A stretch of DNA of 13,264 nucleotides from a virus (Duplodnaviria; Heunggongvirae; Uroviricota; Caudoviricetes), in the IMG/VR virus record IMGVR_UViG_2802429244_000009. One strand, 5' to 3'. This document shows positions 251 through 13,231 of this stretch, one piece after another (within the stretch, counting starts at the first letter, position 1; every line of letters starts with the position of its first letter). The notes under the pieces were generated by a model. The model searched no databases and was not told where the DNA came from. It worked only from the letters and a program-made list of their open reading frames with translations. Both the position numbers and the translations under genes were made by a program.

Positions 251-454
251 TTACGGTGCTGCTTTAAGTCCTGCCGGGATTTCGTTATTGTCCATGCGAA
301 TAACTTTATCAACCGGATAACAGTTGCCGGGAATTTTCTGTTCCGCTGCGGCAGCCATGCATTCTTTCATTGAGTCATGTATACCAATAACAAGATCGAC
401 TGGTTCGCCTGTATTAAGAAAAACTGTCAGAACGAGTGCAAATGCTGTATTCAT
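251..454 (-). CDS. ydfD: YdfD-like small protein (67 aa) with hydrophobic N-terminus, immediately downstream of dicB
   Basis: Internal start MNTAFALVLTVFLNTGEPVD... within track ORF 251..508; start lies 2 nt after the dicB stop. Position and size match ydfD of the Qin dicB operon; the sequence match is from memory only. Confidence 0.55.
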   Translation of the reverse strand: MNTAFALVLTVFLNTGEPVDLVIGIHDSMKECMAAAAEQKIPGNCYPVDKVIRMDNNEIPAGLKAAP

Positions 455-456
455 TG

Positions 457-639
457 TCAGCGTCCTTTTTGCATCAGGCGTAAACGGGCCAGCATTGAAA
501 CAATGCATATTTGATTTAATAGCTCCCGTTCGTGTTTTCTCTTATTAATGGCATCTTCAGTAAATACAGGGTTACTGATTCTGACACCAATTTCAAAACA
601 ACCTTCAGACGTATTGACGTTTGGTAATAACGTTTCCAT
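457..639 (-). CDS. dicB: Cell division inhibitor DicB (60 aa)
   Basis: METLLPNVNTSEGCFEIGVRISNPVFTEDAINKRKHERELLNQICIVSMLARLRLMQKGR is near-identical to recalled E. coli K-12 DicB. True start is the internal ATG at 639 of track ORF 457..735, with GAGG upstream. Confidence 0.85.
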   Translation of the reverse strand: METLLPNVNTSEGCFEIGVRISNPVFTEDAINKRKHERELLNQICIVSMLARLRLMQKGR

Positions 640-820
640 TATCGCGTCCTCAACAATGAATTTTGTGATGCGGTGCCTGGTGCCTCCAGGTGACGTTAAC
701 CAGTTAATAATTAACGCCGGATACAGAGAACCCACCCATAAGAACCAATACGGAAGTCAACTGGCCTTTTTAACTGTTCCGCGTGCGCTGAGCCGCATTC
801 ACCGCATCACAAAATTCACT

Positions 821-865
821 TTAAAAAGGGCGGGTATCACGGGGAAAACAAAACGGATACCCGCC
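821..865 (-). terminator. Rho-independent terminator (3' hairpin of the DicF-like RNA)
   Basis: Perfect 10-bp stem GGCGGGTATC (829-838) / GATACCCGCC (856-865) with a 17-nt loop, followed on the minus strand by CTTTTT. Confidence 0.6.
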
Positions 866-882: not shown

Positions 883-1206
883 GGGTGTTGTGGCGGGGTT
901 GTCACTCAGGCGTATGGTCAACCTGACAACCCGGTGCCACTAATGGGGTAAGGATAACCCCGCCATACTTACCGCCGCGCCATTTCGCGGATTGCCACAA
1001 CCGGAAGCGCACGGTCGAATTAAATTTAACGACACCGTACAGACAGAAGAACTTCGCCGTGCGCTTTCGCGTTATGCCCTGACTTTTCAGGGATATATCC
1101 TTTCAGTAAACTGTCAGTGCCGGATTCTTATCCGTGTCCGGCGCACGACTACACGTGGCAGCGTGTTGGTCTCCATTTTTAACCCAGAACCTCAATGGAG
1201 GATAAA

Positions 1207-1416
1207 ATGCCAAACAGACCAATACATCCGCTTATTGAAAAACAGATTGAATGTCTGGTTAATCAACTCAGGCAATCAGGGTTATTAAAAAACCATTCAG
1301 AGTTAAGGCTCACGAAATCAGCATTTGACGATAAATTAAACAATGTGCTTTATAATGGCATCATTGATTACAATCGTGGTGTTGGTCGTCGTGGCCCTGC
1401 TGGCACCGCCCTGTAA
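1207..1416 (+). CDS. Hypothetical 69-aa protein (MPNRPIHPLIEKQIECLVNQLRQSGLL...), convergent with the 212-aa gene
   Basis: ATG at 1207 preceded by GGAGGA (1196-1201) at good spacing; uninterrupted frame in AT-rich DNA. Stop TAA (1414-1416) directly abuts the stop of the minus-strand gene at 1417-1419. No recognised homolog. Confidence 0.35.
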   Translation: MPNRPIHPLIEKQIECLVNQLRQSGLLKNHSELRLTKSAFDDKLNNVLYNGIIDYNRGVGRRGPAGTAL

Positions 1417-2055
1417 TTACCAGTCAATCCAGAGCGGATAGTGTTCAGCGTAAATATAGCTGTATACATCAAGGTTGTATTTGTGGTCTGCTTTTAACAG
1501 GTCACAAATACATGTTGCTGCTTCCAGGGCTGAAGCTCTGTTACTGAACATCCACGTCGCAACATTCCAGCTATTCTCTGTATCCCATTCTTTCGCAAGA
1601 GTTGACACTCTGAAGGATCCGTTGGCGTTGCCATCAAATACTTCTGTTTCCAGGTTCTTAAGCAATGCCTGATGAACTTTTGTCAGGTATTCAGCCGGAA
1701 TCTTGCCACGGATTCTGATGAGATTGTCATAAACAAACATATTTCCCGCGTATGGCGATTTTTCTTTCTTGTTTTTTAAACCAGCATCATGAGCAAACTG
1801 ATCAATTTCTTCTTTCATTGGTTTCGTATTGATGTTTTGCGCTGTCGTTTCTGCAATTTTCTTTGCCACACTCTCTGAGTCGTGTTTATTTACAGACGAA
1901 CAGAAATACAATCCGGTAAACGCATCGCGCACATTACGAGCCATATTATCAATGTCTTTCTTCGTTGCAGATTCTAATTCAACTTCGGACAGACGTTGAC
2001 AAAGTGCATGCGCTGCAATCACCTTGATTTCTTTTGGTAACTCTTTAAATTCCAT
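1417..2055 (-). CDS. Hypothetical 212-aa protein, AT-rich insert in the early-left operon at the position where K-12 Qin has ydfC
   Basis: Long ORF from the track, co-oriented with ydfA/ydfB/dicB and starting 11 nt after the ydfB-like stop. Composition is visibly AT-richer than flanking phage genes. No motif recognised. Confidence 0.6.
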   Translation of the reverse strand: MEFKELPKEIKVIAAHALCQRLSEVELESATKKDIDNMARNVRDAFTGLYFCSSVNKHDSESVAKKIAETTAQNINTKPMKEEIDQFAHDAGLKNKKEKSPYAGNMFVYDNLIRIRGKIPAEYLTKVHQALLKNLETEVFDGNANGSFRVSTLAKEWDTENSWNVATWMFSNRASALEAATCICDLLKADHKYNLDVYSYIYAEHYPLWIDW

Positions 2056-2066
2056 CTATAACCCCG

Positions 2067-2195
2067 TTAGTCGATAGATTTTGCCGAACTGGAAAGCGCC
2101 TGTTTAAACTCACTGAAGCTGAGAGCTTCTTCGCCTTCGGCAAGGCCTTCGAAGTATTCTTCGTAAGCCTTTTCCATGATTGTGTCGAAATCCAT
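2067..2195 (-). CDS. ydfB: YdfB-like small protein (42 aa; MDFDTIMEKAYEEYFEGLAEGEEALSFSEFKQALSSSAKSID)
   Basis: Hand-translated minus-strand ORF below the track size cutoff. ATG at 2195 sits 1 nt after the ydfA-like stop (TGA-T-ATG). Length equals K-12 YdfB; the sequence identity is not verified. Confidence 0.45.
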   Translation of the reverse strand: MDFDTIMEKAYEEYFEGLAEGEEALSFSEFKQALSSSAKSID

Positions 2196-2196
2196 A

Positions 2197-2352
2197 TCAC
2201 TCACCTGAGTTTCTTTCCAGCCAGCGACGGGCACCATTTTCGGTTTTAAACATTTTGCTTTTGGTATACGTCATCGCGGTGAACGTGCCGTCCTGGTTGG
2301 GAAACACGCCGTACACCAGAGATTCGTTGTTGCCAAGATCGATAGTATCCAT
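2197..2352 (-). CDS. ydfA: YdfA-like small protein (51 aa; MDTIDLGNNESLVYGVFPNQDGTFTAMTYTKSKMFKTENGARRWLERNSGE)
   Basis: Internal ATG at 2352 of track ORF 2197..2430 with GAGG upstream. First gene of the leftward operon downstream of the repressor gene, as in Qin; length matches K-12 YdfA. Confidence 0.5.
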   Translation of the reverse strand: MDTIDLGNNESLVYGVFPNQDGTFTAMTYTKSKMFKTENGARRWLERNSGE

Positions 2353-2579: not shown

Positions 2580-2604
2580 AAAAAAAAGGTCGGCATAACC
2601 GACC
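2580..2604 (-). terminator. Rho-independent terminator downstream of the repressor gene
   Basis: Stem GGTCGG (2588-2593) / CCGACC (2599-2604) with loop CATAA, followed on the minus strand by eight T (plus A-run 2580-2587). Lies about 25 nt after the repressor stop at 2628. Confidence 0.7.
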
Positions 2605-2627
2605 TTAAGTTCAAGAACATGGCAGGG

Positions 2628-3275
2628 TTATAGGTTGAACTGTACACCTTTTGCTACGGCAACAATTTTACACTCTGGCGTAAGCAAGGATGATTGATAG
2701 CGCGGATTGAGAGGGCTTAAATACACAAGTTTTCCATCAATAACTAATTTTTTTATAGTCATAGACGGTTCATTTGTAAGAGGATCTGGAACTATTACAG
2801 CGACGATACTGCCATTTTTATAACTTTCTCCTGGTCTTAGGATCACAGTGGCACCAACTGGGATACTTGGCGACCCTGAGGGGTTATGCATAGTGTCATC
2901 AGGCATTGAAACGGCAAAATCACCTTCCACTACATCAAAGAATGTGGTGATCCTATCGACATTTCCCATTGTTTTCTCTCCTTCTAAGATTAGGAAAGAA
3001 ATCGCGTCACCCCACGAAAAGTAGGGGATCTTGGTGCCTGGATTGCTCTGCACAAAAGATAGTTCAGGAGACGATACTCCATACAGGAGATAGGACTCAG
3101 TAGTTCCTAATGCTTGGGCTAACTTACTTAGAGCTTTGCTGCCGGGTTCGTTTAGATCTTTCTCCCAGTACCCTATAGTAACCCCAGTCACGCCTGAAAG
3201 CTTACCCAGTTCTACTTGGGTGAGTCCCTTATCTTTTCTGAGTTTCTTAAGCCTGATGCCAAGGCTTTCCATCAT
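2628..3275 (-). CDS. CI-like prophage repressor: N-terminal HTH, C-terminal LexA/S24 autopeptidase domain
   Basis: N-terminus LTQVELGKLSGVTGVTIGYWE is an XRE-type HTH. C-terminus carries the S24 signature (AVSM...DTM serine region, TIKKL lysine, LSPLNPRY) paralleling lambda CI (GNSM, FKKL, LQPLNPQY). GGAG RBS upstream of the start at 3275. Confidence 0.85.
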   Translation of the reverse strand: MMESLGIRLKKLRKDKGLTQVELGKLSGVTGVTIGYWEKDLNEPGSKALSKLAQALGTTESYLLYGVSSPELSFVQSNPGTKIPYFSWGDAISFLILEGEKTMGNVDRITTFFDVVEGDFAVSMPDDTMHNPSGSPSIPVGATVILRPGESYKNGSIVAVIVPDPLTNEPSMTIKKLVIDGKLVYLSPLNPRYQSSLLTPECKIVAVAKGVQFNL

Positions 3276-3371: not shown

Positions 3372-3599
3372 ATGCGAGTTGATGAACTTGTTCAGTTTTT
3401 TGGCTCTGTTCAGAGGGTCGCTGATTTTTATGGGATAACCCGCGAAGCTATTTACATGTGGCGTAAGCGCCCCGGTGAAATAGTTCCGAAAGGGAGAGCT
3501 GCGGAAGCTGCTGCATACTCCAAGGGAAAATTATCTTTGAACCCAGAGCTTTACAAAAAGAAGGATACCACTCAGAGCGAAAGGAAGAGTGATTCATGA
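3372..3599 (+). CDS. dicC: Cro-type HTH regulator, DicC-like (75 aa)
   Basis: Divergent from the repressor and preceded by a strong AGGAGG. Pattern FGS...A...GI...A.Y.W....VP.GRA resembles recalled K-12 DicC (76 aa). Confidence 0.6.
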   Translation: MRVDELVQFFGSVQRVADFYGITREAIYMWRKRPGEIVPKGRAAEAAAYSKGKLSLNPELYKKKDTTQSERKSDS

Positions 3600-4021
3600 A
3601 AATCAAGCATGAGCACATCCGCATGGCGATGAATGCCTGGGCGCATCCGGACGGAGAAAAAGTTCCGGCAGCTGAAATAACCCGGGCTTATTTTGAACTG
3701 GGTATGACGTTTCCGGAACTGTACGACGATTCACACCCAGAAGCCCTGGCTCGCAATACTCAGAAGATTTTCCGCTGGGTGGAGAAAGACACCCCTGATG
3801 CGGTTAAAAAAATTCAGGCGTTGTTACCAGCGATCGAAAAAGCAATGCCACCTCTGCTGGTGGCCCGAATGCGCAGCCACAGTTCAGCCTATTTTCGGGA
3901 GCTGGTGGAGACGCGGGAACGACTGGTGAGAGACGCTGATGATTTTGTCGCAGTGGCGATCGCTGGTTTCAATCAGATGAATCGTGGTGGTCCGGCGGGA
4001 AATGCCCTGGTGATGCACTAA
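3596..4021 (+). CDS. YdaT-like regulatory protein at the CII position (141 aa)
   Basis: ATG overlaps the cro-like stop (ATGA at 3596-3599) and has an AAGGAAGAG RBS. N-terminus MKIKHEHI... is reminiscent of YdaT-family proteins that follow cro-like genes in Rac-type prophages (memory-based). Confidence 0.55.
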   Translation: MKIKHEHIRMAMNAWAHPDGEKVPAAEITRAYFELGMTFPELYDDSHPEALARNTQKIFRWVEKDTPDAVKKIQALLPAIEKAMPPLLVARMRSHSSAYFRELVETRERLVRDADDFVAVAIAGFNQMNRGGPAGNALVMH

Positions 4022-8369: not shown

Positions 8370-8580
8370 TTTCATATTGGCGAGGTAACGGGAGTTAAGT
8401 AGAATGGCTGCGGGTGCTTGAGGCTATCTGTCTCAGGCATGAACACCAACGGCAGATAGAGAAAAGCCCCAGTTAACATTACGCGTCCTGCAAGACGCTT
8501 AACATTAATCTGAGGCCATATCTATGACTTGCACACGTAGGTTAGCCTCTTACGTGCCGAAAGGCAAGGAGAAGCAGGCT

Positions 8581-8736
8581 ATGAAGCAGCAAAAGGCGAT
8601 GTTAATCGCCCTGATCGTCATCTGTTTAACCGTCATAGTGACGGCACTGGTAACGAGGAAAGACCTCTGCGAGGTACGAATCCGAACCGGCCAGACGGAG
8701 GTCGCTGTCTTCACAGCTTACGAACCTGAGGAGTAA
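8581..8736 (+). CDS. hokD: Hok-family type I toxin, HokD (RelF)-like (51 aa)
   Basis: MKQQKAMLIALIVICLTVIVTALVTRKDLCEVRIRTGQTEVAVFTAYEPEE matches recalled HokD/Gef-family sequences. AGGAGAA RBS upstream; a structured GC-rich 3' region follows the stop. Confidence 0.85.
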   Translation: MKQQKAMLIALIVICLTVIVTALVTRKDLCEVRIRTGQTEVAVFTAYEPEE

Positions 8737-13077: not shown

Positions 13078-13153
<76 letters not shown>

Positions 13154-13156
13154 TAT

Positions 13157-13231
<75 letters not shown>

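Follow-up and report, generated by a model that had tools for sequence, protein, structure and literature searches.

A convergent gene pair in an interchangeable cassette of the early-left operon of dicB-type lambdoid prophages

We describe a pair of convergent genes in a 13,264-nucleotide stretch of tailed-phage DNA (IMG/VR record IMGVR_UViG_2802429244_000009), which we refer to as the window and which contains the immunity and early region of a Qin/dicB-type lambdoid prophage. The larger gene, an open reading frame (ORF) of 212 codons on the minus strand (1417–2055), is the third gene of the early-left operon. The smaller, a 69-codon ORF on the plus strand (1207–1416), is nested between the 212-residue gene and dicB, both on the minus strand, and as all its neighbours in the operon are on the minus strand it is the only plus-strand gene inside it. 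The two stop codons (1414–1419) abut: TAA at 1414–1416 on the plus strand is followed directly by TTA at 1417–1419, which is TAA on the minus strand, and the intergenic distance is zero. No terminator or gap lies between the convergent genes and any transcripts of the two must therefore overlap. The program-made ORF list begins the small ORF at an ATG at position 1195 (73 residues); starting at the ATG at 1207, which stands 4 nucleotides downstream of a GGAGGA ribosome-binding site (1197–1202, plus strand), gives the 69-residue product. The Prokaryotic Genome Annotation Pipeline (PGAP) annotates the same layout, and calls the same 210-nucleotide small gene in other genomes. A preliminary description, made from the sequence alone, had pointed out this convergent pair, its ribosome-binding site and its abutting stops, and the ORF list together with the sequence bears out the coordinates.

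Both ORFs are real genes under purifying selection: they are called by PGAP, match PHROG families over their full length and accumulate predominantly synonymous substitutions. The 212-residue protein matches phrog_2151 over residues 1–212 of 212 (1.4e-119) and the 69-residue protein matches phrog_4274 over residues 1–69 of 69 (5.9e-43). In comparisons of the window with EC21Z and with O157, respectively, the ratio of nonsynonymous to synonymous differences (pN/pS) of the small ORF is 0.14 (binomial P 3e-5) and 0.24 (P 1.5e-4), and that of the large ORF 0.20 (P 2e-9) and 0.33 (P 7e-7). Across 12 alleles of the small ORF, the annotated frame is the most constrained (dN/dS 0.24), followed by the complementary-strand frame with coinciding third codon positions (0.39), and the other four frames lie at about 1.0–1.6.

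The database searches say little about function. Both PHROG families are annotated as being of unknown function, every one of 142 homologs of the 212-residue protein is annotated as hypothetical, and PGAP lists both genes in O157:H7 as hypothetical proteins (WP_001133037 and WP_000394548). Neither window protein has a match in Pfam or NCBIfam, or to a defence family in PADLOC-DB v2 at E values up to 1, in agreement with the earlier remark that neither carries an assignable motif. Searching 19 related large and small variants against Pfam, NCBIfam and PADLOC gives nothing significant except for a helix-turn-helix (HTH) domain in the distant homolog P0176 and a weak GhoS-like match of one small partner. 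Profiles of the N-terminal domain described below, of the full 212-residue protein and of the 69-residue protein find nothing below E 0.07 among solved structures. We found no literature on WP_000394548, WP_001133037 or Ybl81, and the dicBF papers do not mention the cassette.

The 212-residue protein is, by alignments and profile searches, a chimera of a shared N-terminal domain and a swappable C-terminal domain, a feature that the preliminary description missed. An alignment of 29 homologs reveals an N-terminal part that covers about 55 residues and is mosaic, existing in three or more allelic forms, then a linker of low complexity and a highly conserved region spanning residues 99–212. The first of these, the N-domain (residues 1–55; 1891–2055, minus strand), has two helices and the motif MEFK.LP...NVRDAFTGLY. 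The linker (residues 56–98; 1762–1890, minus strand) is of low confidence in the AlphaFold2 model, with predicted local distance difference test (pLDDT) values below 50 for residues 49–100, and is probably disordered. The C-domain (residues 99–212, about 110 residues; 1420–1761, minus strand) has an alpha/beta ferredoxin-like fold in the predicted model, and its structural neighbours are generic ferredoxin- and ACT-like folds only. A profile search over 1.8 billion representative proteins returns 49 matches to the 212-residue protein, most of which share the N-domain only and continue into unrelated C-termini of about 40–150 residues. Two of the matches, P0176 and P0188, share the C-domain only. 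The N-domain is thus common to proteins with at least 11 unrelated C-termini.

The F-x-x-L-P-x-E motif and the two helices of the N-domain suggested a ribbon-helix-helix fold. This candidate was rejected, as hhalign gives a probability of 0.6% against a ribbon-helix-helix alignment entered by hand. N-domain proteins of 147 residues, or of 76 residues (the N-domain alone), are also found in Stx2a-converting or related phages (L097 and L098, phages PA2 and Ss-VASD, and L168), where they stand in another early-left setting, with exo, ssb and DUF2303 ahead of them.

In dicB/kilR-type loci, every N-domain protein with a C-terminal extension is faced by a small ORF on the opposite strand, which adjoins the 3' end of the large ORF or overlaps with it and which changes whenever the C-terminus changes. 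We find at least 11 such cassette types, a number that is a lower bound. The lengths of the large and small products are, respectively, 212 and 69 residues in the window type (type A), 106 or 88 and 91 in L005 and L171, 112 and 64 in L004, 129 and 99 in L076, 179 and 80 in L086, 201 and 63 in L089, 133 and 61 in L094, 125 and 102 in L095, 135 and 77 in phage Evi (L099), 150 and 72 in L173, and 124 and 72 in L174. The small partners are mutually unrelated by BLAST and soluble, and most belong to PHROG families of their own, of unknown function. All of the small ORFs begin at the same conserved ribosome-binding site and ATG, CAATGGAGGATAAAATG or the variant TCAGGAGGGTGAAATG, at the end of a spacer of about 330 nucleotides, and the alignments place the right-hand recombination junction in or near the linker. 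Because the flanks are conserved and the interior differs, the exchanged unit consists of the linker, the C-domain and the body of the small ORF. Each of the two conserved flanks supplies a translation start, one that of the large gene with its N-domain and the other that of the small gene with its ribosome-binding site and ATG. N-domain allele and cassette type assort independently of one another: type A is found with three N-domain alleles, and the same alleles occur in other types. The sharp conserved boundaries in the locus alignments support the earlier suggestion that the pair is cargo, and show it to be exchangeable.

Polymorphic toxin-immunity loci are recognized by a conserved N-terminus, a variable C-terminus and a small neighbour that co-varies with it, and in those of the contact-dependent inhibition (CDI) and Rhs type swapping proceeds by recombination in the conserved part. 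The cassettes have this layout, with a conserved N-terminal region, many unrelated C-termini and a co-varying small neighbour. They differ in that they lack a secretion or pre-toxin motif and a known toxin domain, as checked by Pfam homology, in that the small gene faces the large one instead of following it on the same strand, and in that the proteins are small, cytoplasmic and encoded in a phage early operon. Among the large variants tested (88–212 residues), Pfam finds no secretion, trafficking or toxin domain, and no signal features were seen.

Further insight into the pair comes from the two proteins that carry the C-domain on its own. P0176 (286 residues) and P0188 (220 residues) carry it at about 39% identity, lack the N-domain, and are encoded directly after Cox in int-C-cox-type prophages; P0176 has an XRE-type HTH (Pfam 8e-6; PHROG repressor families) between its N-terminal part and the C-domain. 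Each of these genes is then followed by a convergent, overlapping small ORF whose product is 43–49% identical to the 69-residue protein (E 4e-10 and 6e-23) and retains the motifs QL..SGLLK and RRGPAG..L. When IMG/VR is searched with a small-protein profile, 68 loci are identified, and the C-domain gene is adjacent on the opposite strand in 68/68. Both genes are intact in 58 of these; the small gene is broken and the large one intact in six, the reverse holds for one, both are broken in two, and one locus is a distant pair. The C-domain and the small ORF strictly co-occur by this search and vary together in at least 11 cassette types and in two phage lineages, which supports the view that the two genes belong together. 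As the pair and its convergent layout have been kept through divergence and a change of context, physical linkage alone is not an easy explanation.

The 69-residue protein is predicted to have two helices and a conserved basic tail, RRGPAG..L (AlphaFold2 pLDDT 60), and across the distant homologs this disordered tail, GRRGPAG..L (residues 60–69; window 1384–1413), is its most conserved motif. The YdaT/CII-like protein of the window (3596–4021) ends in RGGPAGNALVMH, and this tail resembles that of the 69-residue protein. A relationship between the two C-termini (RGGPAGNAL in the YdaT-like protein) was considered and rejected, as BLAST found no alignment; the resemblance may reflect a shared short motif, such as a degron or a binding motif, or coincidence. 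The O157-type allele of the small ORF has a run of seven A residues (codons 4–6), and seven IMG/VR loci (including L014, L018, L022, L037, L043 and L059) read six, such that the 69-residue ORF is frameshifted and the 212-residue ORF is intact. These seven loci have near-consecutive taxon identifiers and are probably from one sequencing project, and the six-A reading could stem from a mutation that they have in common, from an error in sequencing the homopolymer or from phase variation.

The preliminary description placed the pair at the site of ydfC, as a replacement for it. YdfC resembles the 212-residue protein in position, both genes belonging to one operon with ydfB on one side and the conserved spacer on the other, but the two have no sequence similarity: BLASTP gives no alignment, and tblastn finds no YdfC in the window. 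In seven loci (L005, L089, L095, L096, L099, L170 and L171) ydfC and a cassette are present together. The cassettes thus have a slot of their own, downstream of ydfC and independent of it, and the replacement of one by the other does not hold.

A closer positional parallel is found in the Rac prophage of K-12, whose operon comprises racR, ydaG, ydaF (DUF1391), sieB on the opposite strand, the small RNA (sRNA) gene kilS, and kilR. Rac sieB, on the plus strand, converges on the minus-strand ydaF/DUF1391 gene with a 4-nucleotide overlap (L175, NC_000913.3 1418671–1419311), and the kilS–sieB spacer is partly homologous to the spacer in the window. From the matching operon order and spacer, it follows that the antisense slot occupied by the 69-residue gene holds, in Rac, the known superinfection-exclusion gene sieB. 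Pfam finds no SieB homology in the window proteins.

The spacer itself, about 330 nucleotides between the cassette and the dicF slot (880–1206), is near-invariant in all cassette types and in loci that have ydfC only, has a G+C content (GC) of 0.51, and contains several hairpins. Its conservation is unusually strong for non-coding DNA, and it could act as an RNA element for operon processing or antitermination, as the promoter region of the antisense gene, or in both capacities. If the small gene has a promoter of its own, this is where it would be expected. The best candidate found by hand, TTTTCA-17-TAAACT at 1084–1112, matches at only 8 of 12 positions and was rejected.

We consider it somewhat probable that the two genes constitute a cognate pair that is expressed reciprocally. 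Beyond this, and more tentatively, we propose that the pair is a cognate noncontiguous-operon module in which the antisense 69-residue protein would be an exclusion factor and the C-domain of the 212-residue protein its neutralizer. A role in exclusion or anti-exclusion is the best available reading because of the position equivalent to Rac sieB and the architecture of the locus; of the anti-defence or exclusion function suggested before, this much stands. In this model, the slot would be a polymorphic plug-in position in the early-left (PL-type) operon of dicB/kilR-type lambdoid prophages, where homologous recombination between the flanks would swap the interior, consisting of linker, C-domain and small-ORF body. 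In a lysogen the operon would be repressed, and the antisense 69-residue protein would be made from the spacer side and would exclude incoming related phages, as the positional counterpart of Rac sieB. Upon induction or infection, transcription from PL would run through the 212-residue gene and head-on into the small gene, lowering its expression by polymerase collision and antisense pairing. The same transcription would also yield the 212-residue protein, whose C-domain would bind and neutralize the cognate small protein to give self-immunity in the manner of Esc/SieB or Ati/Tai. Many pairs that do not cross-react would be maintained because co-resident lambdoid phages are in diversifying conflict. 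We infer that the small gene is transcribed in lysogens, that the two proteins bind physically, and which of the partners is the active one. In a more general form that we hold equally tentatively, the slot may be an unrecognized polymorphic hotspot in which a 55-residue N-terminal adaptor is joined to one of at least 11 C-domains, each with its antisense partner made in the lysogen from the common translation start, forming lock-and-key modules of exclusion and self-immunity or of effector and immunity that are switched by head-on transcription from PL and that would act when lambdoid phages, co-resident or superinfecting, come into conflict.

Several observations weigh against this proposal. 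The AlphaFold2 single-chain models of both proteins are of low confidence (pLDDT about 60). The Stx2a-type loci with an N-domain protein have no convergent partner ORF. Consensus promoter scans for the small gene, in the window and in the Cox-type loci, are at chance level, with no convincing sigma-70 match. The small partners, at 61–102 residues, soluble and without enzymatic or membrane features, are inhibitor-like rather than effector-like and in this respect are unlike SieB. Neither protein belongs to a defence, anti-defence or toxin-antitoxin family in PADLOC, Pfam or NCBIfam, and part of the observed co-variation would be expected from tight physical linkage alone.

Three known phage systems offer precedents and comparisons. 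Coliphage phi80 has an immune gene, tai, whose transcription runs against the late operon in which its cognate inhibitor Ati is encoded, such that immunity is on in the lysogen and neutralized in lytic growth (PMC11364771). The window pair is similar in having an antisense gene set against a lytic operon that holds its putative cognate partner, with both inherited as a unit; in the model, likewise, the operon partner would be made in lytic growth only and would bind its own version of the antisense protein. It differs in that Tai/Ati belongs to a Q-dependent late operon rather than to PL, in that Tai targets tail assembly, and in that the antisense protein of the window has only 69 residues and its operon partner has an additional, shared N-domain. 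The window pair shows no sequence similarity to any defence family in PADLOC, Pfam or NCBIfam, although PADLOC v2.0.0 (2023) predates Tai/Ati.

In the Staphylococcus aureus phage 80alpha, Tha is encoded in the operon and is inhibited by the product of a small antisense gene, ith; as the two are transcribed head-on, one state excludes the other (PMC11087260). The likeness would extend to a noncontiguous operon with reciprocal expression, a small inhibitor (formerly "Xis") of the cognate partner, and allelic cognate pairs (Tha-1/Ith-1 and Tha-2/Ith-2). In that case, however, the operon is the cI operon of the lysogenic state and inhibition comes from the antisense gene, a polarity opposite to that which we prefer, and Tha is a HEPN RNase, whereas the window pair has no HEPN or nuclease signature.

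In P22 and lambda, the phage has its own Esc to counteract SieB, and SieB is also controlled by an antisense RNA, sas (reviewed in PMC12197685). That system lies in the same early-left neighbourhood, between the immunity genes and kil, and Rac sieB occupies the same antisense slot after an sRNA gene and spacer; it joins exclusion expressed by the prophage, an escape protein made by the phage, and control by antisense RNA. It differs in that Esc is an in-frame internal product of sieB and not of a convergent gene, and in that the small proteins of the cassettes are soluble and much shorter.

A serious rival to the proposed exclusion module, although we judge it unlikely, is the same pair with opposite polarity. 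The C-domain would then be an early host-takeover or killing effector, carried on a common N-terminal module, and the small antisense protein an antidote or immunity factor made by the lysogen, either buffering leaky PL expression or disarming the same effector when delivered by superinfecting kin. The layout of the locus, being that of polymorphic toxin-immunity systems, is what would be expected, and the small partners are short, helical and partly disordered, as inhibitors and antitoxins are. In Tha/Ith it is the small antisense gene that encodes the inhibitor, and the 102-residue partner in L095 has a weak, sub-threshold GhoS-like match (E 0.015). However, the large gene stays intact where the small gene is frameshifted or bears a stop, and in the partnerless Stx phages, which is unexpected for a toxin in need of an antidote. 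The C-domain is also without a toxin or enzyme signature, and its fusion to an HTH in P0176 is more in keeping with a binding or regulatory domain than with an effector. A toxin/regulator pair, as once suggested for these genes, finds no support as a classical toxin-antitoxin system: there are no toxin-antitoxin domains in Pfam or NCBIfam, the genes do not point in one direction, and a broken small gene does not entail loss of the large one. A type II toxin-antitoxin class was likewise rejected, as the genes are convergent, no toxin-antitoxin domain is found, and the ribbon-helix-helix test of the N-domain was negative.

A further alternative, which we consider improbable, is that the two are independent accessory genes (morons) sharing a recombination hotspot, and that their co-variation is hitch-hiking that arises from a zero or negative intergenic distance. 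The conserved flanks clearly drive the swapping, and the C-regions of types F and I are alike in their first part and diverge only nearest the small gene, both of which would be in keeping with this, as would the fact that support for an interaction of the two products is indirect. It is difficult to reconcile with the pair having stayed adjacent and convergent down to 39–49% identity, into another phage lineage with different flanks and N-terminal fusions, with the 68/68 co-occurrence, or with the recurrence of the same layout in 11 unrelated cassette types.

We give still less weight to a regulatory switch, in which the large protein would regulate the early operon (dicF/dicB, kil) and the small one would be an anti-factor setting the threshold between lysogeny and lytic growth. 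The XRE-type HTH of P0176, the ACT/ferredoxin-like fold, which is typical of regulatory domains, and the proximity of the cassette to the immunity region all point in this direction. However, the 212-residue protein of the window has no DNA-binding domain (Pfam is blank and the ribbon-helix-helix comparison failed in hhalign), 11 unrelated cassette types are hard to square with one core role, and the cassette is missing from many similar prophages such as S88 and K-12 Qin. That the 69-residue ORF is untranslated, with only an antisense transcript or the DNA itself being of consequence, is very improbable, for although the promoter scans gave nothing above chance and seven IMG/VR loci have the six-A frameshift, purifying selection is concentrated in the annotated frame, the ribosome-binding site is strong and correctly spaced, protein homologs at 43–49% identity conserve its motifs, and the PHROG match is full-length.

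Of 5,426 complete E. coli genomes, 569 (about 10%) match the 1.3-kb region around the cassette (window 1000–2300) over at least 80% of its length, and homologs are restricted to Escherichia species and Salmonella. None of the deposited phage genomes has the C-domain or the small gene, and a scan of GTDB species representatives for the small gene found none. The small gene is strain-variable and absent from reference genomes, and the cassette is absent from many otherwise similar prophages, among them S88 and K-12 Qin. O157:H7 has up to seven copies of this early-operon region. Synonymous divergence between cassette alleles in E. coli is very high (pS 0.26–0.43 for the window against L001 and L002), which implies old allelic lineages and not recent spread.

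The genes themselves are not new, being ordinary members of the function-less families phrog_2151 and phrog_4274; the pairing and the modular architecture are not recorded in PHROG. What appears to be undescribed is the modular arrangement of N- and C-domains, the one-to-one antisense pairing in at least 11 types, the shared translation starts, and the equivalence with the sieB slot of Rac. The dicBF/kilR early operon is well studied for DicF, DicB and KilR, and we found no literature on the variable slot. The convergent pairs may be a hidden family of matched phage-conflict proteins, and we see a moderate, though less than even, chance that they represent a new family of phage-conflict modules. 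If so, at least 11 very small and tractable systems would be added to the few known in which a prophage carries a weapon together with its own antidote, the noncontiguous-operon principle would extend to the PL operon of lambdoid phages, and the coexistence or competition of related prophages within one strain, such as O157:H7 with its multiple copies of the region, would be easier to explain. The shared N-domain and shared translation start also suggest a natural "plug-in" platform for expression.

The genes surrounding the pair are those of a dicB operon. Upstream of it in the operon are the ydfA/DUF1391 gene (2197–2352, minus strand; Pfam 4.7e-27) and a ydfB-like gene (2067–2195, minus strand), for which PGAP uses the name ydfB in homologous loci. 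Downstream are dicB (457–639, minus strand; Pfam DicB 7.3e-37) and the ydfD/DUF1482 gene (251–454, minus strand; Pfam). The operon is preceded by a gene for a CI-like repressor with HTH and S24 domains (2628–3275, minus strand; Pfam), with a PL-type promoter region between this gene and ydfA and a promoter-like site at 2560–2532 on the minus strand. The genes for Cro, the YdaT/CII-like protein and replication are on the plus strand, to the right. The GC of the cassette is 0.408, as compared with 0.458 for the whole window (the 4.6th percentile of 849-nucleotide windows). The claim that the pair is AT-richer than the genes around it is therefore true in part, the difference being moderate: the cassette lies below ydfA (0.487), ydfB (0.450), the spacer (0.510) and ydfD (0.441), but not below dicB (0.392).

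Of the dicBF gene set, the window contains DUF1391, DicB and DUF1482, and a different hairpin in the place of DicF, which Rfam does not find in the window even at E values up to 5. This hairpin, at the dicF position (829–865, minus strand; –22.5 kcal/mol, z –5.15), has a U-tail extending to about 821. Across related loci, four or more alleles of this sRNA slot are seen: canonical DicF; one similar to kilS of Rac; that of the window, which L089 and L095 share; and a short one in L094. The dicB leader (662–816, minus strand) has a sub-threshold Rfam match to STnc100 (33.5 bits, gathering threshold 47; E 1.9e-5).

A terminator-like hairpin with a long T-run directly follows the repressor gene (2586–2606, minus strand). 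In another lambdoid prophage, svsR, a defence-related co293-like sRNA, is located at the 3' end of cI (PMC12803456). A link between svsR and the cassette locus was considered and discarded, as its position at the cI 3' end is unrelated to this locus. In related prophages there is a second variable slot between the repressor and DUF1391 genes, which contains toxin-antitoxin modules in L004 (3670–4151) and L094 (1397–2061), consisting of a RelE/ParE-family protein with a small partner and of HigB with an HTH partner. Elsewhere in the window we find a hok/sok-type locus (8412–8586, plus strand; Rfam sok, 109.5 bits) and two tRNA genes (13078–13150 and 13157–13228, plus strand).

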